From the sequence record NZ_CP035506.1: 64,000 nt of DNA; one strand, given 5' to 3'. Both the position numbers and the translations under genes were made by a program. Below are positions 20,888-58,086 of this stretch, piece by piece. The notes beneath the pieces are model-generated. The model saw only the letters and a program-made list of their open reading frames with translations. It ran no database searches and was not told the DNA's origin. The DNA comes from a plasmid. Position 1 is the first letter of the stretch, and each line of letters opens with the position of its first letter.

Positions 20888-23101
20888 ATGGCGATCAAAC
20901 TTGTAGATTCGGTTGATGATTTGCTTTCGGCTCTTCGCGTCGTGAAGGGCGGAGATACGATCCTTCTGGAAGATGGAGATTATGGATATCTCTACCTTTC
21001 CAGTGGCTTGAAAGGGCAGCTTCCGGAGTATGACAGTACCGTCACAATTGCGGCGCTCAATCCGGGAAAAGCGACCTTCTCCAAGATGGATGTGCGCGGA
21101 GCCAGCAATCTGGCTTTCGAGGGCCTCGATGTCTCCAACTCACTGCAGATCTGGTATAATTCCAGCAATGTGGCGGTCAGAAATTCCACCATCACCAACC
21201 TGACCGTTCGCGATACACAAGGTGCGGACATTTCCGGCAATACGATTGGCGGGGGGAGCTTCGGCCTTGTCCTGCAGGCGGCTTCCGATGTGTCTGTCCG
21301 GGGCAACTATATTCATGATGTGACCACCGATCTGGTTCGGATCGTCGGAAACAGCCATGACGTCGTGGTCGAGAACAACCTTATCTCCGATACGGTCGCC
21401 CGCCCGCCGACCCACCCCGATCTCATCCAGATGTTCGGCCTGAACGGGGCGACGCCGCATGACATCACGATCCGCGGCAATATCCTGCACGACGATCTCT
21501 CCACAGGATCGGTGAGACCTCAGGGCATCTTCATGAACGGCCCGATGGGGGCCACTGGGTTCCAGGATATCCTGATCGAACAGAACCTTATCTGGACGCA
21601 GCATATCAACACGATCTATATCAACGGGGCGGACGGGAATTTCGTCATCCGTGACAATTCCATGATCGCCACGCAGTGGAGCAACGGCGCCAATATCCGT
21701 CTCGCCGGCTGGAACAACGAAGGCATCAGCGTCACCGGCAACGTCTCCCGTGCCATCGGGGACGAGGGGAACGGGACGACGGCCTGGAACAACTACAATT
21801 TCGGGACCGGCAAGTGGTTCAACGCCACCGGCGATCAGACCGACATCTTCCAGAGCCCGCAGTATATCGGCTGGAAGAGCTTCCTGCCTGTCGCCGGATC
21901 GGCCATTGATTTTGGCAGCGGCTACGGCGCTCAGGGAAGGCTGAAGGAACTGCTGGCGGGCGTGGACAACGACTTCGGTGTGACACGCCTGGTAATGGAG
22001 GAAACGGATAACCTCAGCCTCAAGGGGCACAGCAAATCCTGGTTCCGCTTCGCCGACGGCGGCACGCTCGACCTCGACGAGGCGACGGTTTCGCTGACCT
22101 TCTCGGCCAATTCCGCCTCTGGAGCGCGCACCATCCTGTCAAAGGATTCCGCCGGTCTCGATCATGGTTTCTCGGCGACGGTGAACAGCGGAACGCTCAC
22201 CCTCCGCTTTGAGGATGACAGCGGGATCAAGACCATCGTCCATGACGGGATTGCCGCGAAAACCGATTACAATCTCGTCATGTCCTTTGACGATGGCAAG
22301 GCGACGGCCTGGCTGAACGGCCAATCCATCGGGCAGGTGGAGACCGGGATGGACTGGTCCAAGAACGGCTCCGATCTGATCCTCGGCGCCGATGGAGGGC
22401 TTTCAAAATACGGGCCGAGGTCGTTCTTTTCAGGCACCGTCGGAGATCTGCGCATCTATGACCAGGGAATGACGTACAGTCAGCTTTCGGCCCATGTCGA
22501 TGCGCGGGAAAGCTATCTCGCGGCGGTGGAGGCGGCCAAGGACACCTCGCATACGGTATTTTATCACGGCGGGATCACCGACTTCAAAAACACGGTGAGG
22601 GATGCCATCGTCACCGAGACGGATGACAAGTTCTCCACGACGGAAGGAACCGTGGCGCTGAACTTCCGTCCCGAACTGGTCAATGGCGGAAGGGGCCTCG
22701 TCTCACGGGATTCCACCGGGCTGGGGGATGGATTCCACATCGCCATCAGCAACGGCAGCCTCGTCGTCAAATTCGAGGATGACGACGGCACGCAAGCGCT
22801 CCGGTACGAAGGCATCGAACGCTACAAGGATTATTCCGTCGTGGCGAGCTTTGGAAATGGTGTCGCGGATGTGTGGGTGAACAACACGCATCTCGGCCAG
22901 GTCGAGACCAATATGGACTGGACCGACAATTCCGACAGCCTCATTCTGGGAGCGTTGAACTCCAACAGTGCGGCCGGGACGACCTCTGCGATGCACGGGG
23001 CATATTTCGGCGCGCTCAACGGGGTTCTGGTCGTGGACGAAAGCATGACGCCACAGGAGCTGGCAGCCTATATCGACGCCCATCCCCTCATTCTCGTCTG
23101 A
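20888..23101 (+). CDS. Right-handed parallel beta-helix (pectate-lyase-fold) protein with two C-terminal LamG-like domains; candidate secreted EPS glycanase/lyase
   Basis: N-terminal repeats (NSTITNLTVRDTQGADISGNTIGGG, VRGNYIHD, VVENNLISD) typical of beta-helix CAZymes. Two divergent concanavalin-like repeats at the C-terminus. No N-terminal signal peptide. Paralogue of ORF 29300..31594. Confidence 0.75.
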   Translation: MAIKLVDSVDDLLSALRVVKGGDTILLEDGDYGYLYLSSGLKGQLPEYDSTVTIAALNPGKATFSKMDVRGASNLAFEGLDVSNSLQIWYNSSNVAVRNSTITNLTVRDTQGADISGNTIGGGSFGLVLQAASDVSVRGNYIHDVTTDLVRIVGNSHDVVVENNLISDTVARPPTHPDLIQMFGLNGATPHDITIRGNILHDDLSTGSVRPQGIFMNGPMGATGFQDILIEQNLIWTQHINTIYINGADGNFVIRDNSMIATQWSNGANIRLAGWNNEGISVTGNVSRAIGDEGNGTTAWNNYNFGTGKWFNATGDQTDIFQSPQYIGWKSFLPVAGSAIDFGSGYGAQGRLKELLAGVDNDFGVTRLVMEETDNLSLKGHSKSWFRFADGGTLDLDEATVSLTFSANSASGARTILSKDSAGLDHGFSATVNSGTLTLRFEDDSGIKTIVHDGIAAKTDYNLVMSFDDGKATAWLNGQSIGQVETGMDWSKNGSDLILGADGGLSKYGPRSFFSGTVGDLRIYDQGMTYSQLSAHVDARESYLAAVEAAKDTSHTVFYHGGITDFKNTVRDAIVTETDDKFSTTEGTVALNFRPELVNGGRGLVSRDSTGLGDGFHIAISNGSLVVKFEDDDGTQALRYEGIERYKDYSVVASFGNGVADVWVNNTHLGQVETNMDWTDNSDSLILGALNSNSAAGTTSAMHGAYFGALNGVLVVDESMTPQELAAYIDAHPLILV

Positions 23102-23307
23102 AGCGGTTCCCCCATGATGCAGCGGTATTCTGGGGGATCATTCCGGGGGACGAACCAAGCAATGCCTGTTCCCAGGGGAATGCGGCCGATGCAGTTGCCG
23201 CAAGTGATATATTCGCATTCCTTCCGGCAGATAAGGCCGGCGGGTTTGACGGGTCTGCGGTTTTAAAGCGGCAGATCCCGGTCCTGACAGTATCGGAACG
23301 ATAGGTG

Positions 23308-23535
23308 TCAGAGATCGATCAGTATCCTGCCCCGCAATTCGGGCGGACAGCCCCGTCCACAGACCGAATTCTCAGGCCGATATGCACTGGCGTCCGGGCC
23401 CATCATGAGGCCCCCTATGACAAAGGCGATGAGCAGCCAGATGGTGGCTATCTTGTCCTGTCGCTCGAATTTGGTGAGCGAGGTGATGAACACAATCACA
23501 AGCCCTGCAAGCAGAAGTGAAACGACCGCCATCAT
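23308..23535 (-). CDS. Small two-TM membrane protein (possibly PLDc_N-like)
   Basis: 75 aa, two hydrophobic helices, isolated in an intergenic region. Weak call. Confidence 0.35.
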   Translation of the reverse strand: MMAVVSLLLAGLVIVFITSLTKFERQDKIATIWLLIAFVIGGLMMGPDASAYRPENSVCGRGCPPELRGRILIDL

Positions 23536-24111
23536 TTTCCGATCACCTTTGCCAAGACAGCTTCCCGAAGCCCCGGTTGCCGTAATACCGGTGCCCCGTG
23601 AGGGGCGCCCGTCCGCGCCATCGTTCGTGCCTGACCTCGGCCCCTGCGGGGGCCGGAGCCTCTGTCGTGCTGCGCGGATACCGCTCTGTTTCCGCTGAAT
23701 TTCACGTCCTGCACGCCATCCTTGCGGTCCTGAGGAGTCCGGCCCAGTCCGGTCCAGTCCCGCCCGAAAACCGCCGGACGGCTGTCGGGCAGGTCGGGGG
23801 ACAGGCCCGGCTTCTGTCTATCATGAGAGCGCCTTTTGCGCCAGCAGGCAATACCTGACCGCACCTGCCAAAGAAGGATCCGGGGTGGGATAGGCCGGCC
23901 TCATTCGCGCGGCCTGGAAATCGCCGGTCGAAGCCACGCTGCAGGGCAGGCATGGCCGTGAACTGCCGAAGAAGGCGGCGCTTTTCCCATGGGGTGTTGT
24001 CGGGACAGCCTGTATCCGCCACCTGTAGTTGTGGCGATTGATCTTGTGCGGCAGCCTGATATTCAGAACGAGGCCGGACATCCAGACCGGCAGGATGAAG
24101 GAACCGACCCA

Positions 24112-26445: not shown

Positions 26446-26713
26446 ACCGGCAGGGGGCGCCGATAAGCGGACGGCCCCCGACCGTGCTGGCCTCCTCCCT
26501 GCTGCGACGCGGCCATGAGAAACGTGCCCGGGAAACGCACCGGGGAATGCCTGCGCTGCCTGAGGCAGGCGGCGGTTCTGCACCGTGATCGGCCCTTGGA
26601 CGACTGGCACAACGCCACGGGCCTGTCGCCGGAGCCTCCGGCCCGGGATGTGTCGGAGCCTGGATCGCCGGAGCCCGGATGCGTCGGAGATTGCGTCAGG
26701 GCCCCGGCTGGCA

Positions 26714-29203
26714 TCAGGGGGCTGCGAGACGCATCTCGAACAGCGGACGCCAGCGGCCCTTGCCGTCCTTCATGCCGACTACGGGAAATCCGAAGCCCAA
26801 CGGATCCTGTGACCAGCTTTCATAGATGCCGCCTGCGTGGATCGCATCTTCGGCCGCGCCATCCTTGTCGGGGCGCTTCTCGCCGTCGTCCATGCGGCGG
26901 ACGAGCGTGCCGGCGGGCCAGAGCCCGGTGGCCCGTGTGATCCTGACCTGCGGGGGGGTGACGGAGGTGTCGAGTTCGGCGATCGCCCCCAGCGCGATGG
27001 TGGGAACGAAGGCCGCGTCCTTCCCCGGCTCCTTCACATACCACGATCTGAGCGCAGTAGGCGCGGGGCTGTAGATCCGGCCCCCGTTCACCGCCACCAC
27101 GTCGATGAGGATATGTCTCCGGTCCCTGGTCAGGCGGGCATTGGCGTAATGGGGGTGCACGGCGGTATCCGGGATCTCGCCGATCGTCTGGAGCGCCATC
27201 ACCGCCAGCCGCTGCATGAAGCGGGCGCTGCCATGGTCGAATGTCTCCGGCGGGCCGTAACGGCCCTGTTCGGGAGTGTTGAACTGCGCCGGAGGATGCG
27301 CCCCGCCGCTGTCGCCGATCCGGTAGTCCGAAACGACCGGCCCCAGCGTGAAGCCGTGCTGCTGGGCAAAGGCCGCGCGGGCCGCGCGCATCCCCTCCCG
27401 CCCGTTGACGCGGCTTTCCCGGTCGCTGGCCAGCACGCCGAGCGTCCAGCCCGGCTCCAGCTCGGCCGTCAGCGAATGGGCCATGTCGCCTGCGTGACCG
27501 GGCAGGAACATCGCCGACATGAGCGGCGCCACGTTCTTGCCGTTCATCGCGCCCTCGTTCATCAGCCAGTTCCACAGCACCGCCGTCACATCCCGTCCCC
27601 AGAGGTCCAGCTTGTCGGTGATGTCGGCCCATTGCCGGTCGGCCCGGGTGGTTTCCCCCCCGAGCAGCCGTGCCATGGAGGTGCCGCCCACGGCCTCGTC
27701 GATCAGCATGAAGGGGGTGCCGGGTTTCAGGCGGCGGAACTGGTTCAGGAAGGCGACGACCCCGTCGCCCCCCGCCTGCGGGCCGGCCCCGATCCGGCCC
27801 ATGACGGGCCGGCGCGCCGCATCGCCCAGCTCCTCCCGCGCTCCCAGCGCAAGGAGCCGGGCCACGGAGCCTGACATGGGCGCGTCGGGGGTGAGCCGCC
27901 GGGTCGTGTTGTCGAGCGGATAGGACGTCTGGCTCTGTCCCATGACGAGGAACTTGTAGCCCACGCCGAATTCGCTGCGTGCATGGGCGATCACCCCGGG
28001 CGCTTCCGCCAGCCGCGCATCGGCAAAGAGCCAGCCGGCCTCGCTTTCGGGAAGCGGCAGGCTCCCCGACCAGCGGTTGCCCTGCAGCGGTCCCATCGGG
28101 GTCCAGTCCTGCACCACCTTGCCCGTGGCCGCCTCGATGACGCGAAGCTCCACCGGGCCGGAGGCCTCGCCCGAGAAGGGCACGTCTCTCTCGCGCTCTC
28201 CCCGGTGCAGGCCGAAGACCATCCCCGCCGATTTCTGCTCAAGGGTGACATATTCCGTCTCCGACTGGCGGCGGAGGGTCGAGCCGGGAGTCGTTGCTTC
28301 GGGAGCGGCGGCGGTTTCCGCCACGCTGGCGGTGGGTGCCGTGCCCTCTCCCGGAGCGGGGGAGAGGCTGCCGGGTGTTCCGTCGAATTCCCGCAGGAAG
28401 GTGAGGTCCGCGGCGGGCAGCACGGCCCGGAACGGCGCGCCGCGGGCGATGCGCGACCAGTCCTCCGGGGGGGGAAGCGGCCCGGTGACGATGCCGACGG
28501 CGCCGATTTCCCCGTCCCACAAAGGGTCACGCCCCGGATTGGCCGGCCCCCCGAAAGCGGTGAGGCTGCCCCAGCCGCCGATGTTGAAAGGCGCGATCTC
28601 CCCGCTGTCCGTGACCCCGGTATCCGTGAGGGGTGGCCCGGGATGGCGGTCGCCGGTCCGGGGGGAATACCAGTCGATCTGCCATGTGCCCGTCCCGTCG
28701 TGCCAGAAGACGACAAGGGCCGCCTCCTCGTCCCAGAGGGCGCTTGCCAGGTCCACGGCGCTGCCCCGCCCTCCCATCTGGGAGGCGGTGAAACGGTTGC
28801 GGAGTTCGGGGACGGAATGTCCGGGATTGCCCAGGCCCAGCCGGAACCGGTTCCCGCCCTTGCCCGCATGGCCCATGATCCCCTTCGTCAGCCGTCCGTC
28901 GCGCTTGTCGAGCGGCAGGCGCAGAAGGGCGAAGATCGCCTGCGGACGCCCCGATCCGGCCAGGGCGATGCCCTGCCCGGGCTGAAGCAGCAGGCCCCGC
29001 CCCGCCCGGTCGGATGTCCAGTTTCCTTCCGGGAAGCGGACCGATCCGCCGGGAGCGCCGGGATCGACGGCCGGAACCGGCGGATAGGGGGAGGCGGCGG
29101 AGAGCGAAGCCCCCCCGGCAAGGCCCATGAGCAGCGCGAGTGCAAGACACCGGCGGAAGCGGCGCAGAAAGGCGGAAGGCGTCATGAAGGCGGAGGGTGT
29201 CAT
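26714..29203 (-). CDS. Large secreted protein, paralogue B of 17775..20276 (SGNH/SASA-like core, GQSQ motif)
   Basis: Signal peptide LALALLMGLAGGASLSAASP. The same conserved blocks as paralogue A. The start region contains an 18-bp tandem duplication encoding MTPSAF twice. Confidence 0.65.
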   Translation of the reverse strand: MTPSAFMTPSAFLRRFRRCLALALLMGLAGGASLSAASPYPPVPAVDPGAPGGSVRFPEGNWTSDRAGRGLLLQPGQGIALAGSGRPQAIFALLRLPLDKRDGRLTKGIMGHAGKGGNRFRLGLGNPGHSVPELRNRFTASQMGGRGSAVDLASALWDEEAALVVFWHDGTGTWQIDWYSPRTGDRHPGPPLTDTGVTDSGEIAPFNIGGWGSLTAFGGPANPGRDPLWDGEIGAVGIVTGPLPPPEDWSRIARGAPFRAVLPAADLTFLREFDGTPGSLSPAPGEGTAPTASVAETAAAPEATTPGSTLRRQSETEYVTLEQKSAGMVFGLHRGERERDVPFSGEASGPVELRVIEAATGKVVQDWTPMGPLQGNRWSGSLPLPESEAGWLFADARLAEAPGVIAHARSEFGVGYKFLVMGQSQTSYPLDNTTRRLTPDAPMSGSVARLLALGAREELGDAARRPVMGRIGAGPQAGGDGVVAFLNQFRRLKPGTPFMLIDEAVGGTSMARLLGGETTRADRQWADITDKLDLWGRDVTAVLWNWLMNEGAMNGKNVAPLMSAMFLPGHAGDMAHSLTAELEPGWTLGVLASDRESRVNGREGMRAARAAFAQQHGFTLGPVVSDYRIGDSGGAHPPAQFNTPEQGRYGPPETFDHGSARFMQRLAVMALQTIGEIPDTAVHPHYANARLTRDRRHILIDVVAVNGGRIYSPAPTALRSWYVKEPGKDAAFVPTIALGAIAELDTSVTPPQVRITRATGLWPAGTLVRRMDDGEKRPDKDGAAEDAIHAGGIYESWSQDPLGFGFPVVGMKDGKGRWRPLFEMRLAAP

Positions 29204-29299
29204 GAAAACAGGCTCCTTTCCCAGCCTTTATGACGCAGCCTCACTCGCTTTCAAGGCGAATGAGGCTGAGTGTTTCACCTATCGCGAGATCGTGCGACG

Positions 29300-31594
29300 T
29301 CAGAGCAGCAGATGCGCCTCCGCGCCCAGCACATCGGCGAGTTCTGCGGGGGAGAGGCCGCGGTCATAGACGGCGAAGCCGGAGATCGCGCCGTCGAAGG
29401 CCCATCGCAGCGCATCCTGGGTTCCGGCGGTGCTGCGGGAATTGTCGGCCCCGACGATCAGGGCCTCGGAGTTCTGCTGCCAGTCGATGCCGGTCTGCAC
29501 CTGACCGATGAGCGCATTGTCGAGCCAGACCTGCCCGATGCCGCCGCCGAAGGCGATCTGCAGGGCGTGGCCGGTCCCGGCCTCTATGCCCTCGTGTCGG
29601 ATCATGGCGGTGGTGCGGCCATCCTCGAAGGCGATGTGCAGGGTGCCGCCGCTGATCCAGGCGCCAAGGCCGTGGCCGGTGCCTTCGGCATCCTTGGAGA
29701 AGAGCGCGCGGTTGCCGTCGACGCGGTCGGCGCTGAAGCCGAAGGCGATGGTCGCCTCTGGCAGGGCGAGGGCGGGGTCATGCGCAATGGCCGTGACCGG
29801 GTCCAGCCGCTGGGCCAGCTTCTCCGGCAGCACGAGGTTGCCCGACAGATCGAGATCGCGCAGCCCCGCAAGCCGGAGGGCGGGGCCGGCGCCGGAGCCG
29901 GGGGAGACGGGGATTTCTGCGCCCAGCACATCGGCGAGTTCTGCGGGGGAGAGGCCGCGGTCATAGACGGCGAAGTCGGAGATCGCGCCGTCGAAGGCCC
30001 ATCGCAGCGCATCCTGGGTTCCGGCGGTGCTGCGGGAATTGTCGGCCCCGACGATCAGGGCCTCGGAGTTGTGCTGCCAGTCGATGCCGGTCTGCACCTG
30101 ACCGATGAGCGCATTGTCGAGCCAGACCTGCCCGATGCCGCCGCCGAAGGCGATCTGCAGGGCGTGGCCGGTCCCGGCCTCTATGCCCTCGTGTCGGATC
30201 ATGGCGGTGGTGCGGCCATCCTCGAAGGCGATGTGCAGGGTGCCGCCGCTGATCCAGGCGCCAAGGCCGTGGCCGGTGCCTTCGGCATCCTTGGAGAAGA
30301 GCGCGCGGTTGCCGTCGACGCGGTCGGCGCTGAAGCCGAAGGCGATGGTCGCCTCTGGCAGGGCGAGGGCGGGGTCATGCGCAATGGCCGTGACCGGGTC
30401 CAGCCGCTGGGCCAGCTTCTCCGGCAGCACGAGGTTGCCCGACAGGTCGAGATCGCGCAGCCCCGCAAGCCGGAGGGCGGCCAGCAGCTCCCCCGGAAGG
30501 TCCCCCGGAAGGTCCCAGGGCGGGGACGTGATCCCTTCCCCGGCCAGAAGTTCCGCCAGCTTGTCGAGCGCACCGAAACCGGCGGCGGGCCCGTCGGGAT
30601 CGCGCAGAAGGAAATCCCGCCAGTCGCCGCCCGCCCCCTGAAAAAGCTCCGCGGCGGCCTTGTAGCCCTTGTAGAGATAGTTCTCCCCGATGGTGGAGGA
30701 TTTGGTTTCGTCCAGGATGGAACTGGCGAGGTTGCCCTCCACCGTCACACCGGAATTGTCGAAGCCATTCTTGAGGGTCAGGCGGATCACGCCGCCCTTG
30801 AAGACCTCCGGCCCGGCGATGAGGGAGTTGTTCAGAATGAAGACGTTCTCCTGCCCGCCGTCGATATAGATCGTGTTCGGGCTGCGGACGGAAACGAGGT
30901 TGTCCTCGATCAGGATGTTGCGGAACCCGGTCTCCTGCGGGCCGGACAGGAAGATGCCCTGCGCGATGATCAGGCCGGTCGCCGGATCGTCGTAAAGGTA
31001 GTTGCCCCGGATGATGATGTCATGGGGGGTCATGCCGTCATAGCCGTAGATCTGGATGAGGTCGGGGTGGATGTCGGGCGTGGCCGCCACGGTATCCCAC
31101 AGGACGTTGTTCTCGATCAGGCCGTTGTAGCTGTTGCGGCTGATCTGGATCAGGTCGGCGCCCGCGCGTTCAAAGACATTGTCCGCGATGGTGAAGTCCG
31201 ACACGGAGAAGAGGTTGAGGGTGTATTTGCCCTCCGAGACATGGTTGCCGGTGATCGTGGCGCCCGCCACGTCGCGGAAGTAGAGCGCGTGCCCCACACT
31301 GTTCGTCACCGCGATGTTGCTGGAGAAGGAGGCGCGGAATTCGCCCGTCATCGTCACCTGATCGAAGGTCAGGTTCTGGGCGTCCCGGATCGTCACCGTC
31401 TCGAAACGCGCGCCCCCCGGCGTGGCGGAGGTGATGGTGACGGGGCTGTCATAGGGCAGGACATTCGGTCCGTATCTGCCTTTCAGGTTGAGCGCGCCGT
31501 AATCGCCATCCGCAAGGACGATGGTGTCGCCTCCCGCTGCCGACTTCAGGGCGGCAAGAAGCCCCTCGGTATCGGATACATGGATCGTGGCCAT
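29300..31594 (-). CDS. Beta-helix protein with two near-identical C-terminal LamG-like domains; paralogue of 20888..23101
   Basis: N-terminus MATIHVSDTEGLLAALKSAAGGDTIVLADGDYG parallels MAIKLVDSVDDLLSALRVVKGGDTILLEDGDYG. The C-terminal 199-aa unit is repeated twice, nearly exactly. Confidence 0.75.
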   Translation of the reverse strand: MATIHVSDTEGLLAALKSAAGGDTIVLADGDYGALNLKGRYGPNVLPYDSPVTITSATPGGARFETVTIRDAQNLTFDQVTMTGEFRASFSSNIAVTNSVGHALYFRDVAGATITGNHVSEGKYTLNLFSVSDFTIADNVFERAGADLIQISRNSYNGLIENNVLWDTVAATPDIHPDLIQIYGYDGMTPHDIIIRGNYLYDDPATGLIIAQGIFLSGPQETGFRNILIEDNLVSVRSPNTIYIDGGQENVFILNNSLIAGPEVFKGGVIRLTLKNGFDNSGVTVEGNLASSILDETKSSTIGENYLYKGYKAAAELFQGAGGDWRDFLLRDPDGPAAGFGALDKLAELLAGEGITSPPWDLPGDLPGELLAALRLAGLRDLDLSGNLVLPEKLAQRLDPVTAIAHDPALALPEATIAFGFSADRVDGNRALFSKDAEGTGHGLGAWISGGTLHIAFEDGRTTAMIRHEGIEAGTGHALQIAFGGGIGQVWLDNALIGQVQTGIDWQHNSEALIVGADNSRSTAGTQDALRWAFDGAISDFAVYDRGLSPAELADVLGAEIPVSPGSGAGPALRLAGLRDLDLSGNLVLPEKLAQRLDPVTAIAHDPALALPEATIAFGFSADRVDGNRALFSKDAEGTGHGLGAWISGGTLHIAFEDGRTTAMIRHEGIEAGTGHALQIAFGGGIGQVWLDNALIGQVQTGIDWQQNSEALIVGADNSRSTAGTQDALRWAFDGAISGFAVYDRGLSPAELADVLGAEAHLLL
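29322..30480. repeat. Two near-identical 562-bp copies spaced 597 bp apart (29322-29883 and 29919-30480); in-frame tandem duplication inside the beta-helix gene
   Basis: The copies differ at only a few positions on direct comparison. Six-frame ORFs 29508..29966/30105..30641 and 29602..30012/30199..30573 are pairwise near-identical. Period 597 bp = 199 codons. Confidence 0.9.
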
Positions 31595-31672
31595 GGACTG
31601 TCTCCTTCGTTGAAGAAGACAGTCTGGGACCGAAATGAGGCTCCTTTGTGGCGGGAGCGATCTTGGACGAGA

Positions 31673-32803
31673 TCAGTTCTGCCGGGCGGGGCTGGCGGTG
31701 GTCCGGGTCCGCATCGGCTTGCCGTTCAGCAGGAATTCAAGGAGCGGCGACGGCTTGATGACATGGCGGTGCAGCGCGAAGACGATCACATAGGTAATGG
31801 CCGCGACGACGAAGAAGGTCGAATAGGGGCCGAGGCCGAGGGGGCGCAGCGCGAAGGCCACCGCATAGATGACCAGGAAGTGCATGATATAGACCGAATA
31901 GACATATCCTGCCGCCTTGGAGAGCCAGGTGGGACGATTCAGGAACCGCCGGAAGACGGCCATGAAGAGCGCCACCGCGGTTACGGTGCAGAAGGCCTTC
32001 GCCACGATCCGAACCACATCGCCCGCGGCGCCGGGCAGGCCGATCTTCACCCCCGCGACCGCCACCAGGATGCCGAGCACGAGGGCCGGAATGCTTACCG
32101 ACTGGAACCGGTCCGACAGCGCCGGATAGGCGAAAAGGATCATCCCCGTTATGTAGAAGGGCCAGTAATACATGGTCGTGGGGCCGATCCATGCGAGAGG
32201 CGTTGCTTCGAGCAGCGGGTCGAGGGCGACCTGATAGCCGACCCGGAGGGTCAGGCTGGCGGCCGCGATGGCAAGGGCGAGCAGCAGGATGACCGCCGTC
32301 GGCGGCAGCGATGCGAGCCGCGCGGCGATCCGTCCCCCCGGCTTCGAAAGACGCTGGCCAAGGGCGATGAGCGTGGGAGCCGTCGCCACGAAGAAGAAGA
32401 GGGTGAGCAGGAACCACAGATGCAGGTGCCAGACGCCCGGCCCCTTCAGGCGCGCGCTTTCCGGGTTCAGGATGGCGGACAGCGGGACCGGGCCATTGTG
32501 ATAGGTGGCCACGAGCCAGTTGGTGATCGGATTCAGCAAAACGAGGCCCGTTGCCAGAGGAACCAGAAGAGCAACCGACCGCCGCCGCAGGAAATCCCCC
32601 GCAGCATATCGCTGCAGCATCATTGCGGCGAAAAATCCTGAAACCAGGAAGAAAAGGCTCATCCGGAAATATCCCGATGTCACCGCGATCCAGCGCAGCC
32701 CTTCGGGCCGGTCGAGCGTCGTGACATGGACGAGAATGCCGTAGAGCATCGCGAAGGCACGCAAAGCGTCGAGGTAGTAGAGCCGGCCGGGGGAAGAGCT
32801 CAT
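31673..32803 (-). CDS. Acyltransferase_3 family membrane O-acyltransferase
   Basis: N-terminal motif YYLDALRAFAMLYGILVHV, multi-pass membrane protein. Confidence 0.75.
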   Translation of the reverse strand: MSSSPGRLYYLDALRAFAMLYGILVHVTTLDRPEGLRWIAVTSGYFRMSLFFLVSGFFAAMMLQRYAAGDFLRRRSVALLVPLATGLVLLNPITNWLVATYHNGPVPLSAILNPESARLKGPGVWHLHLWFLLTLFFFVATAPTLIALGQRLSKPGGRIAARLASLPPTAVILLLALAIAAASLTLRVGYQVALDPLLEATPLAWIGPTTMYYWPFYITGMILFAYPALSDRFQSVSIPALVLGILVAVAGVKIGLPGAAGDVVRIVAKAFCTVTAVALFMAVFRRFLNRPTWLSKAAGYVYSVYIMHFLVIYAVAFALRPLGLGPYSTFFVVAAITYVIVFALHRHVIKPSPLLEFLLNGKPMRTRTTASPARQN

Positions 32804-32913: not shown

Positions 32914-34347
32914 TCAAGCGGGATTTTGCCTGCGCCCCCTTTGCAGCTGCCATCGGCCGAGGAGCCAGCCCCGGAGGCTGACCATCCCCAGAAGGGAGGC
33001 CGCCACCAGGGCGACGAGCGGGATCTGCACCCAGTTGAAGTTGCCGAATACCACGGGCACCGGCGGCAGCAGCCAGGTGTCGAGCGCCAGCGCCCCGAGG
33101 GCCAGCGCCCACCACAGGAACGGCCCCGTCAGCTTGCGAAGCGGCACCCGCAGCCAGCTGCGCAGGATCCACAGGGAAAGCGCCAGCCCCATCAGTTCGC
33201 CGATCACCGCCGTGACCACCACGAAGACGAGCCCGTAGCCATGGTCGAGCGCATACCACACGAAGGGAAACATCAGCACCCTCGGCAGGTTGCCGAGGAA
33301 CATGTTCTTGGTCTCGCCCCGCGCCAATGCGACGACGGAAACGCCGGTCTTGGCCAGCCGGATGCCCTGAACCAGCGCCAGCCAGACGAGGATGTCCAGC
33401 GCCTCGGCATATTTCGTCCCGAACAGCAGCAGCACCAGATCGTTGCCGAAGAGCGAGAAGCCGAGCACGACCAGCACACCCATCGCCATGCCGAGCTCGG
33501 TCGTGACATGGGCGAGGCGGATGAAGGCCTGTTCCTGATCCTGCACCGCGGAAAGCCGGGGCAGAAGCAGGCGCTGCACGCTCTGCATCAGGACGTTGCT
33601 GGCCGTCAGCGTCAGCATGAAGACGACGGAGAACTGGCCGAGCGCCTCGATGCCGAGCTGGTTGGCGATGATGACCCTGTCGCCCTGGAACACGATGAAC
33701 AGCATCATCGCGGCAAGGAACAGCGGCCAGCCGAAGGACATGGCCCGCCGGAAAATGCCCCAGTCCCAGGCCAGCCGGTAGGGACGGGTCGCCGTCGCAT
33801 GGGAGATGACGCAGCGCAGCACCTGCTGGAACACCAGCGTCCAGAGGGCCATCCGATAATCCCCGAACAGATAGTACATCGGGAAGATGGCCAGCAGCGC
33901 CCCCAGTTCCGACCCAAGCATCACCCAGATGACGGGGCCGAAGCGGTAGGAGCGCTCCGCGCGCGCCATGTCGAGATGCCAGAACCCCTGGATCAGCGGC
34001 ATGACCGCCATCACCTGAAAGCCCCAGCCGACCTCGGGCACGCCCATCAGATCGGCAAGCGGCTGCGCGGTGAGGAACAGCAGCAGCGCCAGCAGGATAC
34101 CGCGGACCACCTGAACGGCCTGGAGGACCGCCTGCATCCGGGGCGTGTCGCCGTTCTTGTCCTGCACGAGCAGCCGGTCGAGACCGAGATAGCCGATCAT
34201 CTCGATCAGCGCGAAGATCACCGCAAAGGTATTCGCCGTCCCGTAATCCGAGACGGTCAGCATCCGCGCAAGGGCGATGTTACGCAGGAACTTGAGCACG
34301 GCGATGCCCATGTTGCTGCCCAGAACGGCAATGGCGGAGCGGATCAT
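32914..34347 (-). CDS. Polysaccharide biosynthesis protein / Wzx-type oligosaccharide flippase (MOP superfamily)
   Basis: 477 aa, about 12-14 TM helices, N-terminal LGSNMGIAVLKFLRNIALARML typical of Wzx/RfbX. Confidence 0.8.
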   Translation of the reverse strand: MIRSAIAVLGSNMGIAVLKFLRNIALARMLTVSDYGTANTFAVIFALIEMIGYLGLDRLLVQDKNGDTPRMQAVLQAVQVVRGILLALLLFLTAQPLADLMGVPEVGWGFQVMAVMPLIQGFWHLDMARAERSYRFGPVIWVMLGSELGALLAIFPMYYLFGDYRMALWTLVFQQVLRCVISHATATRPYRLAWDWGIFRRAMSFGWPLFLAAMMLFIVFQGDRVIIANQLGIEALGQFSVVFMLTLTASNVLMQSVQRLLLPRLSAVQDQEQAFIRLAHVTTELGMAMGVLVVLGFSLFGNDLVLLLFGTKYAEALDILVWLALVQGIRLAKTGVSVVALARGETKNMFLGNLPRVLMFPFVWYALDHGYGLVFVVVTAVIGELMGLALSLWILRSWLRVPLRKLTGPFLWWALALGALALDTWLLPPVPVVFGNFNWVQIPLVALVAASLLGMVSLRGWLLGRWQLQRGRRQNPA

Positions 34348-35522
34348 CGACGTTTGGCGCTCGCCTCGGTGAGCAGGTCGCGCAGCGTCGCCTCATAGAC
34401 CTTGAGGCGGGCATCGGCATTGCCGAAGGCCGCGGCCACTTCGCCGGCAAGCGCCTCGCGGCCCTCATATCCCTCGCGGATCCGGGCCAGCACGGTTTCG
34501 TTGTCGAGCGCCTTGAGATCGACCGTCCGGTCGTAGCCCAGCGTGCCGAACAGGCCCGCGAACTTCCGGCTGTAGGCCATGGGGATCACCGGCACGCCGC
34601 TGGAGAAGGCGGCGATGGTGGCATGCATCCGGGCGCCCATGAAGAAATCGAGCCCGGAGATGTAGCTTTTCGCCTCCGAGGGGCTGCGGAATTCCGGGGC
34701 CAGGATGAGCTCTGGAAATTCGGCGGCGATTTCCCGGTTCGTATGGGCGTCATCCTCGGCCGAGCGGTCTCCCGGCAGGACATGGGCCACGAGATGCAAC
34801 TCCACCTCCGGCCGGGCCTGGAAATCGGTGATGATGCTGCGGATGAGCGCGGGATAGTCCACCGTCAGGCCGAACATGTTCTTGCCCGTGTAGCCGCCGC
34901 GCATGAGCAGGCCGGAGACGTTCAACCCGACCTTCACCTTGCCGCCCGGCGCCCGTTCGGGCCGGGTATAGGGCAGGCGCATGGCGACGTCGGTTGCCTC
35001 GCCGATCGTGCCCTTGAACCCCGCCTCGCGCAGGAAGTCGGTCGAGAGCTTGTCGCGGGTGAAGACTGCGCGCGACTGGCGGACCGAGGCCATGGCGAAG
35101 TCGCGCGTGCGCCCCGGTTCGAACGGGCCCATGGTCTGCGGGCTGAGCACGAGGGGCTTGCGCGCCGCATGGATGACGAATTTGGAGGTCAGCATCCGCC
35201 GGATCCGGCCGGGGCCGTAGATGTCGGCGAAGCTGTCGCCCGCCCCGATATCGAGGATGAAGTCGCATTTCATCACGCGTGCGAGCAGGCGGTCCGGCCG
35301 CACGAGATCCACGGTCCGCATCCCGAAGAGCTCGACATTGTCGCCTTGGATGTAATGCGGGAAATTGTCCTTCGCGGTCATGATGATGTAGCGGACCGAC
35401 AGGCCGAGGTCGCGGGCCAGGCTGTCGACGATATGCATCTGCGAGACGGTCAGTGCGCCGACGCCGAGGTTCGGGGAGTTGGACGAATGCCAAATCAGTC
35501 CAACCGTAATGTTCTTCTTCAC
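34344..35522 (-). CDS. Polysaccharide pyruvyl transferase (WcaK/ExoV/PssM family)
   Basis: 392 aa with PS_pyruv_trans-like organisation (GLIWHSSNSPNLGVGAL N-terminus, central FMGARMHATIAA motif). 4-bp overlap with the wzx start. Confidence 0.8.
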   Translation of the reverse strand: MKKNITVGLIWHSSNSPNLGVGALTVSQMHIVDSLARDLGLSVRYIIMTAKDNFPHYIQGDNVELFGMRTVDLVRPDRLLARVMKCDFILDIGAGDSFADIYGPGRIRRMLTSKFVIHAARKPLVLSPQTMGPFEPGRTRDFAMASVRQSRAVFTRDKLSTDFLREAGFKGTIGEATDVAMRLPYTRPERAPGGKVKVGLNVSGLLMRGGYTGKNMFGLTVDYPALIRSIITDFQARPEVELHLVAHVLPGDRSAEDDAHTNREIAAEFPELILAPEFRSPSEAKSYISGLDFFMGARMHATIAAFSSGVPVIPMAYSRKFAGLFGTLGYDRTVDLKALDNETVLARIREGYEGREALAGEVAAAFGNADARLKVYEATLRDLLTEASAKRR

Positions 35523-38918: not shown

Positions 38919-40193
38919 TCAGGACGCCCGCTTGCCACGCCCCTTGAGTGTGCGGCGCAGCGTGCCGAGGAAGTTCTTCAGGTTGCGCGAGGCCGGGTTC
39001 TGCCGGGCGGCCTGCCACAGCAGCAGGCCGCGGTAATCGGGAACCGGGCGCAGGCACAGGCGCAGCGCCGCCAGCCGGGCAAGGAGCGCGCGCCGGCGTT
39101 CGCGCTGCCCGGGCTGGATCCCGGCGAGCGTGCTCACGTCGAAGGGCCCCGCCTCGACATGGCCGCTTTTCACCGCCGCCTCGACGATTTCGCGTCCGAA
39201 GGCATTGCGCGCCACGATCAGGCTGGTGCCCGAGCCTTCGGTGAACAGCGGATAGCCGCGCTCGTCGCTTTCCCAGGCATCGGCGCAGACGATGTCGGCG
39301 GCGATCCCGGTGCCGTCGGCGCAGATCTTGCAGCGGTGCTGAACATGCTTGGAAAGCACCTTCCCCCAGCTGTCATGGTAGCTCATCTTGCGTTCGGTTC
39401 CGTCGCGCAGCACCGCCGTCGCAAAGCCCGGCCAGCCGTTGCCGCGGTAGCGGAAACCCACGACCTCCGCGGGGTCGGCATCGAGCGCCTTCAGCACCGC
39501 CCGCCCGCCCGTCTGCGAGGGCACGCCCGCGCAGAAGAAGGACAGGATCACCGGAAAGCTCGCGCGGACGCGGGGATCGGCCTCCTGCCAGGCGCGCATC
39601 GCCACCGCGTCGCAGGGCTTGCCCACGAAGGCGTAGCGCTTGCCGTTCTCCAGGAACCGGTTCAGCCCGGCGAGCGGCGCGGAGGGCGCGTAGCGCGACC
39701 CGGCCGCCGCCTGCACCTCGGCCTCGGTGACGGAGATGGTGGCGATATTGCCGATCGGCTGTTCCGGATCGGCCGTGGTCTGCACCACCGCGTCGATCTG
39801 GCCCGTCTCCAGCAGATGCACGAGCACCGCCGAAAGCACTCCGCCCGAGGAGCCGGAGAAGCGCAGCGCCTCGTCCCGGGCATGACCGATCCGCATGGTG
39901 TCATAGGGGCCCCAGAGCGGATCATCGATGCGGCCTGCCGCCTCCACCCGTTCGCCAAGGCCGGGGCAGACGCGCGCGATCATCGCATCCTGTCCCGCAC
40001 TGACCGGCCCCTGCTGAACCGGGCGCAGCCAGCCGGGGGGGGTCATGCGCATGGTGACGGAGCCGGGCGCGATCGCGGCGCAGGCGCCGCAGCCGGCACA
40101 GAGATCGCCCTTGCGGACGCGGGCAAGGCTCGCGGCTTCCGCGAATGCGGCGGGCGGGGGGGCGCCCACAGGGTCCATCTTCATGATCCGCAT
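38919..40193 (-). CDS. Coenzyme F420 hydrogenase/dehydrogenase beta-subunit (FrhB)-like protein of EPS clusters
   Basis: N-terminal Cys cluster CAGCGACAAIAP and C-terminal CKICADGTGIAADIVCADAWE, as in FrhB-family proteins that accompany pyruvyl transferases. Confidence 0.65.
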   Translation of the reverse strand: MRIMKMDPVGAPPPAAFAEAASLARVRKGDLCAGCGACAAIAPGSVTMRMTPPGWLRPVQQGPVSAGQDAMIARVCPGLGERVEAAGRIDDPLWGPYDTMRIGHARDEALRFSGSSGGVLSAVLVHLLETGQIDAVVQTTADPEQPIGNIATISVTEAEVQAAAGSRYAPSAPLAGLNRFLENGKRYAFVGKPCDAVAMRAWQEADPRVRASFPVILSFFCAGVPSQTGGRAVLKALDADPAEVVGFRYRGNGWPGFATAVLRDGTERKMSYHDSWGKVLSKHVQHRCKICADGTGIAADIVCADAWESDERGYPLFTEGSGTSLIVARNAFGREIVEAAVKSGHVEAGPFDVSTLAGIQPGQRERRRALLARLAALRLCLRPVPDYRGLLLWQAARQNPASRNLKNFLGTLRRTLKGRGKRAS

Positions 40194-40551: not shown

Positions 40552-42342
40552 ATGAGCGACGGGACTACATCTCCTCAGGCCCCTTCGGGAAGCAACGCCT
40601 ATCGCGCAGCGCTCCGCAGATTGCGGGGCACCTTTCTGATGACGGGCTTCTTCAGCGCGGTGATCAACATCCTGATGCTGACGGGGCCGCTCTACATGCT
40701 TCAGGTCTATGACCGGGTGCTGGGTTCGGGATCGATCGCGACCCTGCAGGGGCTCTTCCTGATCGTGGTGATCCTCTACGCCTTCATGGGGCTTTACGAA
40801 TTCCTCCGTTCGCGGCTGCTCGGCCGGGCGGCGATCCGGCTCGATCAGGAGGTGGGACCGACCGCCTTCCGCGCCTGGCTCCGTTCGGGCGGGCAGCAGG
40901 CCACACGGAAACCGGGCGCATCGCCCCTGCCGCTGGCCGATCTGGGTACGGTTCGCGGGTTTCTCTCCTCACCCGCGATGGGGTCGATCTTCGATGTGCC
41001 GTGGATCCCGCTCTATCTCGGCCTGCTGTTTCTCATCCATCCCTGGCTCGGCTGGCTGACGCTGGCGGGGGCGGCCATCGTGGCGCTGGTGGCGGTGCTG
41101 GGCCGGCGCCTGACCCGCGCCCCGCAGGAGGCTTCTGCCGTGATAGAGGGGGAGGCGCGCGCTTTCTCCGAACAGGGCAGGCGCAATGCCGAGCTGATCG
41201 AGGCGATGGGCATGGAGCGCGGCGTGACGGAGCGCTGGCAGCAGGACCATGCCCGTGCGCTGGCGACGGGCCAGGGGGCGAGCAATGTGTCGGAGGTGAC
41301 GGGCGCCTTCTCCAAATCCTTCCGCATGCTGCTGCAGTCGGCCATGCTGACGGTGGGGGCGCTGCTTGTCCTGCGCCATGAGATGACGGCGGGGATGATC
41401 ATCGCCACCTCCATCCTCTCGGGGCGGGCGCTGGCGCCGGTGGACCAGATCATCGCCCAGTGGCGGATCATCGGGGCGGCGAGCCTTGCCCACAAGCGGC
41501 TCATCGCCTTCTTCGAAAAAGCTCCGCAGGAGCCGCGTCCCATCGGCCTTCCGCAGCCCACCGGCAAGGTGGTGGCGAACCGGCTGACATGCCTCGGCCC
41601 CGTGCCTGGAGCGGGGGGGGAGCGGCCGCGGATGCTGAACCAGGTCAGCTTCGCGCTGGAGCCGGGCGACGGGCTGGGCGTCATCGGCAATTCCGCGGCC
41701 GGCAAATCCACCCTCGCACGGCTGATCGTCGGTGCCTGGAAACCCGATGGCGGCGATATCCGCTTTGACGGTGCGACCCGCGACCAATGGGATCCGGAGG
41801 TTCTGGGACGCGCGGTCGGCTACCTGCCGCAGACGGTGGAACTGCTTCCCGGAACCATCCGCGACAACATCACCCGCTTTGACCCGGCGGCCCGGGACAA
41901 CGACATGATCGCGGCCGCCAGGCTGGCCGGTGTGCATGACATGATCCTCGCGCTGCCCGAAGGATATGGCACGAAGGTGGGCATCCCCGGCCAGCCGCTT
42001 TCCGGCGGCCAGGTACAGCGGCTCGGCCTCGCACGGGCGGTGTTCGGCGGGCCGCGGCTCATCGTTCTGGACGAGCCGAATTCCAACCTCGACGCGGCGG
42101 GAGAGGCGGCGCTTGCCCAGGCGATCCATGCCCTCCGCGCCGGCGGCGCCACGGTGATCCTGATGACCCATCGTACCAGCGCGCTGGCCGAGGTGAACAA
42201 GATCATGCTGCTGTCCGCCGGCAATGTCGTGAAGTTCGGTGACCGGGACGAGGTGCTGCGTGGCCTGTTGCTGCGCCCGGTTCCCGACACCGGGACTGGC
42301 GGTAACCAGATGCCCGGCATCACCGCGGGAGGCCAGCAATGA
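40552..42342 (+). CDS. prsD: Type I secretion system ABC transporter (PrtD/PrsD family, permease + ATPase)
   Basis: 6-TM N-terminal domain, Walker A GNSAAGKST, ABC signature LSGGQVQRLGLAR, Walker B LIVLDEP. Confidence 0.85.
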   Translation: MSDGTTSPQAPSGSNAYRAALRRLRGTFLMTGFFSAVINILMLTGPLYMLQVYDRVLGSGSIATLQGLFLIVVILYAFMGLYEFLRSRLLGRAAIRLDQEVGPTAFRAWLRSGGQQATRKPGASPLPLADLGTVRGFLSSPAMGSIFDVPWIPLYLGLLFLIHPWLGWLTLAGAAIVALVAVLGRRLTRAPQEASAVIEGEARAFSEQGRRNAELIEAMGMERGVTERWQQDHARALATGQGASNVSEVTGAFSKSFRMLLQSAMLTVGALLVLRHEMTAGMIIATSILSGRALAPVDQIIAQWRIIGAASLAHKRLIAFFEKAPQEPRPIGLPQPTGKVVANRLTCLGPVPGAGGERPRMLNQVSFALEPGDGLGVIGNSAAGKSTLARLIVGAWKPDGGDIRFDGATRDQWDPEVLGRAVGYLPQTVELLPGTIRDNITRFDPAARDNDMIAAARLAGVHDMILALPEGYGTKVGIPGQPLSGGQVQRLGLARAVFGGPRLIVLDEPNSNLDAAGEAALAQAIHALRAGGATVILMTHRTSALAEVNKIMLLSAGNVVKFGDRDEVLRGLLLRPVPDTGTGGNQMPGITAGGQQ

Positions 42343-43700
42343 CCATGACACCGATGCTGCCCGGTTCCGTGCCGGTCCATGCCGCATCCGATCCTGTCCG
42401 GCCCGAAACCGGTCTGCGCCTGACAGGCCGCGTCGGCGTGGTGGCGGCGGTGGCGCTGCTCGCCGTCTTTGGCTTTTGGGCCTATGCGACGGAGATCGAC
42501 AGCGCGGTGGCCACGCAGGGCCAGGTCGTGGTGCGCGGCAAGCCCAAGACGGTGCAGAGCCTCGACGGCGGGGTGGTGGAGGAGATCCTCGTCCACAACG
42601 GCGACCGGGTGGAGGAGGGGCAGCTGCTCATGCGGCTCGATCCGACGCTGATCCGGGTGAATCTCGACATCGCCCGGACCCGGCTCGCCGAGGCCTCCGC
42701 CCGCAAGGCGCGGCTGGAGGCGGAGGATCGGGGCCTTGCCGCGCCGGTCTTCACCTATCCCCCCCTGCCCTTCGAGCGGCCGCCCATGGCGGAGCCGGAG
42801 GCAGGCCAGATGCGGGTCTTCGAGGCCCGCCAGCATCTCAATACCGGTCGGCGGGCGCAGCTTGGCGAGAAGCTCGAACAGTTCCGCCGCCAGATCGACG
42901 GGCTGGAGGCCTCCATTACCGCCAAGGCCGAGCAGCTTGGCTATATCGAGCAGGAACTGGCCAACAGCCGGAAGCTCTTCGATCAGGGCCTGATGCGCGA
43001 GCCGCAGATCCTGCAGCTTCAGCGCGCCCGCGCCGAGATGAAGGGCACGCTGGCCGAGGCGGAGGCCGACCGTGCCCGCGTCGGCAATGCCATGCAGGAT
43101 GCGATCATCGAGGTGGATCAGGCCGAGCGGCAGTTCCGAGAGGACGTGGTGACCGATCTGCGCAGCACCCAGACCGAGATCGAGGAATCCACGATCCAGA
43201 TCGTCACCCTGTCGCGCCAGCTGGAACGGGTCGACATCCGCGCGCCCTCGACCGGCATCGTGCACGAGATGCAGGTGACCACGCTGGGCGGTGTCGTGCC
43301 GCCGAACGGCACGATCCTGCAGGTGATCCCGGTGGATGACGGGGTGGAGCTCGAACTGATGCTGGAGCCGCGCGAGATCGACCGGGTGCATCCCGGCCAG
43401 AAGGCGGAGGTGCTCTTCACCGCCTTCGACCATCGCGCCACACCCCGGCTGGAGGCGCATGTCACCCAGATTTCCCCCACCGTCGTTTCCACCGGGACGC
43501 AGGGCGGAACGGAGCGCAACTTCTATCGCCTGGGGCTGGAACTGGAGCCGGGGCAACTGGAGCGGCTGAACGAGAAAAGCTCGGCCATTGTGCCCGGGAT
43601 GCCGATCGAGGCCTTCCTCGAGACAGGGGAGCATACGGTGATGAGCTATCTCGTCCAGCCGCTGGTCAGCCAGATCATGCACGCCTTCCGGGAACGCTGA
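42339..43700 (+). CDS. prsE: Type I secretion membrane fusion protein (HlyD/PrtE/PrsE family)
   Basis: Single N-terminal TM, long coiled-coil region, C-terminal beta-barrel domain. ATGA overlap with prsD. Confidence 0.85.
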   Translation: MTMTPMLPGSVPVHAASDPVRPETGLRLTGRVGVVAAVALLAVFGFWAYATEIDSAVATQGQVVVRGKPKTVQSLDGGVVEEILVHNGDRVEEGQLLMRLDPTLIRVNLDIARTRLAEASARKARLEAEDRGLAAPVFTYPPLPFERPPMAEPEAGQMRVFEARQHLNTGRRAQLGEKLEQFRRQIDGLEASITAKAEQLGYIEQELANSRKLFDQGLMREPQILQLQRARAEMKGTLAEAEADRARVGNAMQDAIIEVDQAERQFREDVVTDLRSTQTEIEESTIQIVTLSRQLERVDIRAPSTGIVHEMQVTTLGGVVPPNGTILQVIPVDDGVELELMLEPREIDRVHPGQKAEVLFTAFDHRATPRLEAHVTQISPTVVSTGTQGGTERNFYRLGLELEPGQLERLNEKSSAIVPGMPIEAFLETGEHTVMSYLVQPLVSQIMHAFRER

Positions 43701-58048: not shown

Positions 58049-58086
58049 GGGGGCTGATGCCGGAGGGGGCAGGATCCTACGTTAAG
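58049..58086. repeat. Tn3-family 38-bp terminal inverted repeat (left)
   Basis: GGGG...ACGTTAAG architecture. The tnpA stop codon lies inside the IR. Confidence 0.8.

Follow-up and report, generated by a model that had tools for sequence, protein, structure and literature searches.

The stretch of plasmid DNA analysed here (record NZ_CP035506.1, 64,000 nt; hereafter the window) carries on its minus strand a gene, at 29300-31594, whose 764-residue product combines an N-terminal right-handed β-helix with two nearly identical LamG-like domains, and the origin and upkeep of this tandem pair are the subject of the present analysis. The protein is identical to QBJ22798.1/WP_131389019.1 (P0063) of Haematobacter massiliensis, which is encoded on a 118,868-bp contig; Haematobacter are human-skin-associated opportunists. 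The window has a G+C content of 65% and long open reading frames (ORFs) in many frames, and a coding-type G+C content at third codon positions (GC3, 0.87) was found only in the minus-strand frame of 29300-31594. An ORF on the plus strand, 29270-32641 (1123 aa), was rejected as a high-GC antisense artefact because the GC3 phase fits the minus strand only. The gene is divided as follows.

29300..31594, minus strand: whole gene, 764 aa plus stop, comprising β-helix, linker, LamG A, linker, LamG B and a short hydrophobic C-terminal tail (ORF list, GC3 0.87, Pfam)
30530..31594, minus strand: N-terminal right-handed β-helix module, aa 1-355, presumed catalytic part
30481..30529, minus strand: upstream linker, Pro/Gly-rich, disordered, not homogenised (predicted local distance difference test score, pLDDT, <50 for aa 356-371)
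29919..30480, minus strand: copy A, LamG domain 1, aa 373-559 (559/562 to copy B; Laminin_G_3 stretch 408-554; AlphaFold2 jelly-roll; Foldseek matches to laminin LG4-5 pairs, E 4e-15)
29884..29918, minus strand: mid-linker, 35 bp, encoding IPVSPGSGAGP, the duplication junction (common to H. missouriensis apart from a 6-bp indel)
29322..29883, minus strand: copy B, LamG domain 2, aa 572-758 (559/562 to copy A; second Laminin_G_3 stretch; AlphaFold2 jelly-roll)
29300..29321, minus strand: unique C-terminal tail (…E)AHLLL plus stop, outside the repeat, a possible type I secretion signal (from the translation)

Self-comparison at an offset of 597 bp, i.e. 199 codons and in frame within the minus-strand ORF, showed that 29322-29883 and 29919-30480 are identical at 559 of 562 bases, with mismatches at 29379/29976, 29474/30071 and 29849/30446. 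One of these differences is synonymous and two are non-synonymous (H508/Q707 and D540/G739). The match is far beyond chance and its borders are abrupt: at the same offset, identity falls to the random level, ~25%, in the flanks (13/60 just left of the repeat), and 9 of the 35 positions of the spacer 29884-29918 are identical. The identical DNA encodes aa 373-559 and aa 572-758, which are the folded domains, and the linkers and the AHLLL tail are unique. In Pfam, the 764-aa protein matched Beta_helix at aa 92-257 (39.3 bits) and PF13385 Laminin_G_3 in two stretches (38.7 bits against a gathering cut-off of 27.6). An AlphaFold2 model built from 38 family sequences had a mean pLDDT of 88.8 and a predicted template modelling score of 0.53, with the LamG domains mostly above 90 and the linkers around them below 50. 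It places the β-helix at aa 3-300 with a helical cap. Two jelly-rolls follow, at 375-559 and 574-762, preceded by disordered linkers at 356-371 and 560-569, respectively, and the last four residues are floppy. The best Foldseek matches in the PDB for the twin LamG domains were the laminin α2 LG4-5 pair 1dyk (E 4e-15) and neurexin LNS pairs. The coordinates, 562-bp length, 597-bp spacing, frame and small number of differences given in a first-pass annotation of this DNA were therefore all right, and the β-helix plus twin LamG architecture that it proposed is upheld by Pfam and AlphaFold2.

A pair this similar could in principle be an assembly artefact, in which one domain is written twice or two diverged domains are merged into one consensus. 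Repeats of such length break or confuse short-read assemblies, and draft type-strain contigs do end inside this one, that of H. massiliensis CCUG 47968 at 52 nt and that of H. missouriensis CCUG 52307 at 28 nt, with repeat-only contigs of 451 bp and 559 bp in the drafts. However, contig ends at the repeat together with repeat-only contigs are what short-read assembly makes of a genuine exact repeat. Furthermore, the contig that carries the identical protein has exactly the size of plasmid pOT1-6 (CP035506, 118,868 bp) of H. massiliensis OT1. For that genome, HGAP/Quiver was applied to PacBio RSII reads from a >20-kb library, at 233-fold coverage (PMC6498234), which makes an artefact very unlikely. 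Long-read confirmation, the check proposed in the first-pass annotation, is in effect available for OT1, as two copies stand in this PacBio assembly (PMC6498234). The three single-nucleotide polymorphisms (SNPs) that mark the copies and the unique junction also recur in independent assemblies (P0062/P0066; L028). Taken together, we consider an artefact to be extremely improbable.

Two of the matching records differ from the window at their 5′ ends or beyond. P0062/P0066, on a 59,213-nt contig of Haematobacter genomosp. 1, has both LamG copies with the A/B marker differences of the window; in place of its first ~98 codons there is an unrelated start of 24 residues (MGVSSPGDYAAFKFPPLPRHDPN…), a sign that the 5′ end was rearranged or truncated in this strain. 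In P0048 (421 aa, from a 1485-nt contig of the European Nucleotide Archive), the first ~149 residues are the N-terminus of the window protein with one substitution near the fusion point, and the remainder is unrelated PF11843 (DUF3363)-type sequence; either the contig is chimeric, or some strain has undergone an insertion or rearrangement here.

The age of the duplication was examined by comparison with the closest homologue outside the species, P0001 (758 aa, 93% identical), which was found in three loci (L001-L003) whose genes are ordered as in the window. Over 1060 nt, L001 matches a contig of the H. missouriensis type strain CCUG 52307 with 100% identity. The H. missouriensis gene also has two LamG copies, at a spacing of 591 bp and identical at 559/559 positions. 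Over 552 aligned sites, copies A and B differ at 3 in the window and at 0 in L001, compared to 53-55 between the copies of the window and those of L001. At 52 of the 55 variable sites, A and B carry the same base within each species and a different base between species, the remaining 3 not following this pattern, and 31 of these 52 shared, species-specific substitutions are synonymous. With the single-domain relative in L004, a MEGAHIT contig, as outgroup, at least 19 substitutions are assigned to the lineage of H. massiliensis and 26 to that of H. missouriensis, scattered over repeat positions 36-546. The synonymous divergence (dS, Nei-Gojobori) between the species is 0.248 for the helix part and 0.257-0.261 for the repeat, compared to 0.007 between the copies in the window and 0 in L001. 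The equal between-species dS of repeat and helix suggests that the repeat has diverged at the normal neutral rate, yet it is identical within each genome. The ratio of non-synonymous to synonymous divergence (dN/dS) between the species is 0.048 in the helix and 0.21-0.24 in the LamG part, showing that the LamG modules are the faster-evolving, less constrained part of the protein.

The linkers add a second line of evidence. The mid-linkers, 35 bp in the window and 29 bp in H. missouriensis, agree at 29/29 nt once a single 6-bp indel is set aside, and the two species have their repeat boundaries within 3 nt of each other. Finding the same junction in both species argues for one old duplication, as two independent illegitimate events would not recreate it, and the duplication would then predate the species split (dS ~0.25). 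The mid-linker is presumably a decayed copy of the upstream linker (…EG-I-T-S-P-P… compared to …AE-I-P-V-S-P-G…). The two are no longer alignable, partly because the upstream linker has gained a 12-bp microrepeat (30489-30516, 2.3 copies by Tandem Repeats Finder; TCCCCCGGAAGG on the plus strand, encoding DLPGDLPGEL). This microrepeat is one unit shorter in H. missouriensis, suggesting that the length of the upstream linker itself varies by slippage, and the upstream linker of the window differs by indels both from the mid-linker and from the upstream linker of H. missouriensis.

An old duplication, decayed linkers and pristine copies with sharp borders point to concerted evolution, and we hold it to be probable, with good confidence, that the LamG duplication is old and has since been homogenised by recombination between the copies. 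On this reading, a single tandem duplication of the LamG unit took place no later than the last common ancestor of H. massiliensis and H. missouriensis, and the two 560-bp copies have since been homogenised repeatedly, leaving them 99.5-100% identical within a genome and ~10% diverged between species. Homogenisation stops at the very points where the copies cease to be homologous, within the disordered linkers with their many indels. The process itself would be homologous recombination, by non-reciprocal gene conversion and/or unequal sister-chromatid exchange. Consistent with this, the domain tree groups the copies by genome for the twins of the window and of H. missouriensis. Concerted evolution is defined operationally by paralogues that are more similar than orthologues (PMC2720389); here, copies within a genome are closer than orthologues, the duplication appears to predate the split and synonymous sites are homogenised, so that, judged by sequence comparison, the phenomenon falls under the standard definition (PMC2720389). 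The first-pass annotation had read the near-identity as a very recent duplication, with ongoing gene conversion as an alternative in brackets. The former does not stand, given the same duplication and junction linker in H. missouriensis and the 52 substitutions shared by both copies; it is the bracketed alternative that fits, as the near-identity is better explained by homogenisation (dS ≤0.007 between copies compared to ~0.26 between species).

Could the twins instead have arisen very recently and independently in H. massiliensis and H. missouriensis, with no time to diverge? There are 3 differences only in 562 bp, most of the clade is single-LamG, the domain tree pairs each set of twins, and near-identical pairs in at least three family lineages, with spacings of 597/591, 558 and 594 bp, show that new duplications do occur. 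Independent non-homologous events, however, would not recreate the 29-nt junction with its matching boundaries, nor would they leave a mid-linker that cannot be aligned with the upstream linker beside domain DNA that is 99.5-100% identical; we regard such independent origins as highly unlikely. Strong purifying selection alone, without recombination, would also keep the domains identical, both being presumably functional and in one protein. The homogenised synonymous sites (dS 0.007 or 0 compared to 0.26 between species) speak against it, as do the weaker constraint on LamG than on the helix and the ~31 between-species synonymous changes present in both copies; in addition, two of the three differences between the window copies are amino-acid changes (H/Q, D/G). 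As identity extends to synonymous sites, selection on the protein alone cannot account for the likeness, and its probability is in our view negligible.

A further alternative concerns the route of homogenisation: cycles of copy number, by unequal sister-chromatid crossing-over (2-3-2, or 2-1 followed by re-expansion), in place of non-reciprocal conversion. RecA acts well on direct repeats of 560 bp, 2-3-2 cycles would keep the shared mid-linker, and some records match the gene with exactly one unit missing (561 and 565 aa compared to 758 and 764 aa); their crossover points differ, P0068 having copy-B markers and P0071 copy-A markers. In contrast, these one-copy records are mainly MEGAHIT (k127/k141), Logan or 2.4x-coverage contigs, compared to mainly SPAdes-style NODE_/scaffold and PacBio records for the two-copy form; a three-copy form was not found among 58 homologues and 17 cluster members; and re-expansion from a single copy would make a new junction. 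Copy-number cycles as the sole route thus receive a minor share of the probability from us. The one-unit-shorter proteins (P0064, P0067, P0068 and P0071; mostly from MEGAHIT, Logan or 2.4x-coverage contigs) were rejected as proof of copy-number polymorphism, since they correlate with assembler type and may be collapses; from the sequences, such polymorphism of the LamG repeat is plausible.

Several points weigh against concerted evolution as reconstructed here. The conversion events are deduced from their outcome, none having been seen directly, and conversion and unequal exchange (2-3-2 cycles), which would both keep the junction, are indistinguishable in these sequences. Short reads underlie the H. 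missouriensis assemblies and the other assemblies from metagenomes, and SNP-bubble popping in de Bruijn graphs may hide a few differences between the copies; it could not conceal the ~50 differences expected without homogenisation. The single-domain L004 may itself be a collapsed MEGAHIT assembly, so that both age and polarity of the duplication are uncertain with respect to that lineage. Finally, strain-level differences occur in both copies at once: five clustered repeat positions (165, 279, 285, 300 and 305) distinguish both copies of the window from those of L028, another H. massiliensis-type assembly, and between the H. missouriensis loci L001 and L029 the only differences in the whole gene are at repeat positions 423 and 502, again in both copies. 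These double SNPs are suggestive of ongoing conversion, but bubble collapse in short-read assemblers gives the same picture, and they were set aside as proof. No signal of GC-biased conversion was found: GC3 in LamG compared to helix is 0.875-0.88 vs 0.865 in the window and 0.815 vs 0.815 in L001, and in the single-copy L004 it is 0.918 vs 0.894, i.e. no lower without a second copy.

To place the pair in its family, LamG domains were delimited in 48 family proteins and a domain tree was built. In the old two-domain clades (P0013, P0016, P0010, P0037, P0039 and P0031, plus the paralogue at 20888-23101 with P0011), the tree sorts domains by position, first with first and second with second, and the two domains of one protein share 33-51% identity. 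An otherwise single-domain clade has, in contrast, at least five places where twins group within the protein, with identities of 98.7% (window), 100% (P0001), 100% (P0005), 97% (P0006), 81% (P0008), 74% (P0012) and 57% (P0003). The genes of P0005 and P0006 have repeats of 489 bp and 488 bp that are 98.2% and 98.6% identical in DNA, with different spacings and linkers and a copy-to-copy dS of ~0.035 each. These data suggest that duplication of the LamG module is recurrent and that pairs exist at every stage from identity to full divergence. P0005/P0008 was considered as a second dated case and rejected, as synonymous sites are saturated between them and a shared duplication is not demonstrable. 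Several homologues come from genomes of Rhodobacterales (Ruegeria, Roseovarius, Neotabrizicola, Tropicimonas and a metagenome-assembled genome of Paracoccaceae). In the P0005 and P0006 loci (L013:860-1879 and L014:587-1609), a replication initiator (PF10134 RPA) and, at the locus start, a ParA protein are encoded within a few kb of the gene, suggesting that the family is plasmid-borne there too; both loci also have a second, shorter β-helix gene and a GDSL lipase downstream. A metagenome scan for the junction returned one contig only, which was already in the comparison set, PLSDB gave no match to 26700-32800, and looking up the exact sequence of the window protein returned no entry.

The diverged paralogue noted in the first-pass annotation is real.

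20888..23101, plus strand: older paralogue, 737 aa, same architecture, LamG domains 35% identical (orthologue P0011 in the syntenic locus L004; d1 with d1 and d2 with d2 in the domain tree)

The paralogue and its surroundings (20200-23800) have a G+C content of 0.51-0.61 compared to 0.65-0.72 nearby, and their GC3 is also lower, at 0.73-0.76. Such values suggest that this segment has had another history, perhaps one of horizontal acquisition, despite the orthologue P0011 in L004.

Predictions of what the protein does rest on its fold, its termini and its neighbours. The closest folds of the β-helix module are the AlgE4 epimerase and PL6 lyases. By sequence, the family profile reaches the PL6 lyase 7o77 (E 9e-8, only over ~110 N-terminal residues), whereas a PDB search with the single window sequence gave nothing meaningful, and NCBIfam assigned the window protein to no family. 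The N-terminus is not of the Sec type, as the first β-strand begins at residue 3. A short hydrophobic C-terminal tail is present in every complete family protein read, and in all two-domain members it stands only after the last LamG. RTX repeats (PF00353) occur in the relatives P0046, P0049, P0050 and P0052, and some relatives have RTX instead of LamG. A candidate exporter lies in the window.

40552..43700, plus strand: type I secretion pair, namely an ABC transporter (40552-42342; ABC_membrane and ABC_tran) and an HlyD-family membrane-fusion protein (42339-43700; HlyD_3/HlyD_D23) (Pfam)

The syntenic locus L004 also carries a type I ABC gene. The missing Sec signal, the position of the tail behind the last LamG only, the RTX repeats of relatives, the nearby ABC and HlyD genes and a type I-secreted epimerase as best structural relative lead us to propose that the protein, predicted to lack an N-terminal signal peptide, would be exported via the neighbouring type I system by its unique hydrophobic C-terminal tail. 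It would then act as a lyase or epimerase on the exopolysaccharide (EPS) of the surrounding cluster, and its LamG domains, as glycan-binding modules, would give bivalent binding of the polymer; carbohydrate binding by LamG is suggested by the family and the genomic context. In this picture, export, the substrate, the chemistry of catalysis and the binding of glycans by LamG are all predictions. Against it, the PL6 family hidden Markov model PF14592 Chondroitinas_B scored 18.8 bits against a cut-off of 24, over the N-terminal 60 residues only, and Pfam detected no RTX repeats (PF00353) in the window protein. We rate the combination of type I export, lyase or epimerase action on the cluster's own polysaccharide and bivalent LamG binding as evenly balanced between right and wrong. 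More broadly, the gene probably encodes a secreted slime-modifying enzyme.

The EPS cluster around the gene encodes ManC, a Wzx flippase, a pyruvyl transferase, three acyltransferases and several glycosyltransferases, together with a Wzy-like protein, Wzz/tyrosine-kinase-like proteins, an exosortase EpsH fusion and a large TPR protein. The last two are an exosortase EpsH fused to DUF3485 (EpsI-like) at 55848-57452 and an 831-aa TPR protein at 50801-53296, which indicate an EPS locus of the PEP-CTERM/exosortase type. An FrhB/FdhB-like (F420 hydrogenase β-type) gene and the polysaccharide pyruvyl transferase gene (38919-40193 and 34344-35522, respectively) lie a few kb apart, and the pair is kept in L004. 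The 829-aa gene downstream of the β-helix gene (26714-29203, minus strand) adjoins it in all Haematobacter loci (831 aa in L001, 816 aa in L004) and has at its 5′ end an 18-bp tandem repeat (29169-29206, 2.1 copies, in perfect frame) that gives MTPSAF-MTPSAF. This ORF and the one at 17313-20276 (plus strand, 987 aa) had no Pfam or NCBIfam match; both have coding-type GC3 and lie inside the EPS cluster, making them candidates for new polysaccharide-related functions. A literature search on Haematobacter EPS found nothing specific. Towards the ends of the window are a ParA/RepA-like partition ATPase (95-1489) and a complete Tn3-family transposase (58082-60967; 961 aa, DDE_Tnp_Tn3 and DUF4158), which is consistent with origin from the 118.9-kb plasmid pOT1-6.

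We compared the twin domains with known cases of sequence homogenisation and repetition. The classic bacterial cases of gene conversion are tufA/tufB and the rRNA operons. The likeness to these lies in the 99.5-100% identity within a genome against ~10% divergence between species, the homogenised synonymous sites and the sharp borders; unlike them, the partners here are two domains in one reading frame, 35 bp apart, rather than separate genes, and the tract is a folded domain. Highly identical tandem domains are also known from the Periscope Proteins SasG, Rib and Sgo0707, where the identity is said to enable intragenic recombination and change in repeat number; neighbouring domains normally share <50% identity, and near-100% is unusual (PMC8201768). 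The window protein shares with these the tandem folded domains of very high DNA identity (99.5% over 562 bp). In contrast, it has two copies only, joined by disordered linkers and not a rigid stalk, Pfam detected no anchor domain in it, cell-wall or otherwise, and the unit that is repeated is the C-terminal, putatively ligand-binding module of an enzyme. The long anchored stalk, one defining feature of Periscope Proteins, is not found in this protein; for the other, demonstrated length variation between strains, there are the one-unit-shorter records, mostly from MEGAHIT, Logan or low-coverage contigs, which do not establish it.

Among enzymes, the AlgE-type secreted mannuronan C-5 epimerases/lyases of Azotobacter combine A-modules with variable numbers of R-modules (PMC12269086, PMC7385640). 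The fold here is of the A-module type, but the accessory modules are LamG jelly-rolls and not RTX R-modules, the similarity is remote with no match to an AlgE-specific family, and the surrounding cluster is a Wzx/Wzy-type heteropolysaccharide locus rather than an alginate operon, with no alginate genes identified in it. For the PL6 lyases (chondroitinase B and alginate lyases), the Pfam model stays below threshold and the match covers ~110 residues. The protein therefore resembles AlgE-type and PL6 β-helix enzymes, membership of either not being demonstrated. A further parallel is found in the EPS glycanases PlyA and PlyB of Rhizobium leguminosarum, which are exported by the PrsDE type I system (PMC2275737, PMC9298526). 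Here the likeness is in system logic only, an EPS enzyme without a Sec signal near EPS genes and a type I exporter, and is not sequence-based. PlyA and PlyB are not known to carry LamG twins.

Concerted evolution is a textbook process, seen here in an unstudied β-helix/LamG protein family. It means that the near-identity of tandem copies is no clock for the age of their duplication, which in this case would be at least as old as two named species. The locus offers a clean bacterial example of intragenic concerted evolution with three controls alongside, i.e. the helix part for neutral divergence, the paralogue ~6 kb away (20888-23101) for copies that have escaped, and related lineages for intermediate stages. 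As the repeat breaks or collapses short-read assemblies, proteins of this family that appear in databases with one LamG may be wrong. The finding also flags an uncharacterised family of AlgE/PL6-like β-helix proteins with LamG modules, linked to EPS clusters, whose members are candidate matrix-remodelling enzymes with a binding valency that may be evolvable.

A more far-reaching idea, which we offer as speculative and rather unlikely, is that in Paracoccaceae the LamG module is a recombinational tuning locus, with recurrent duplication, identity held by conversion and RecA-dependent copy numbers of 1, 2 or 3 within populations. If this were true, the series of twin identities (100, 99, 97, 81, 74, 57, 51, 46 and 35%) would represent the life cycle of a module, from birth through concerted evolution to escape and specialisation, and periscope-like variable length would be applied to the binding modules of an enzyme and not to the stalk of an adhesin. 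The valency of the enzyme for its own polymer would then shift, and with it the length of the chains in the biofilm matrix or the pattern in which they are modified.

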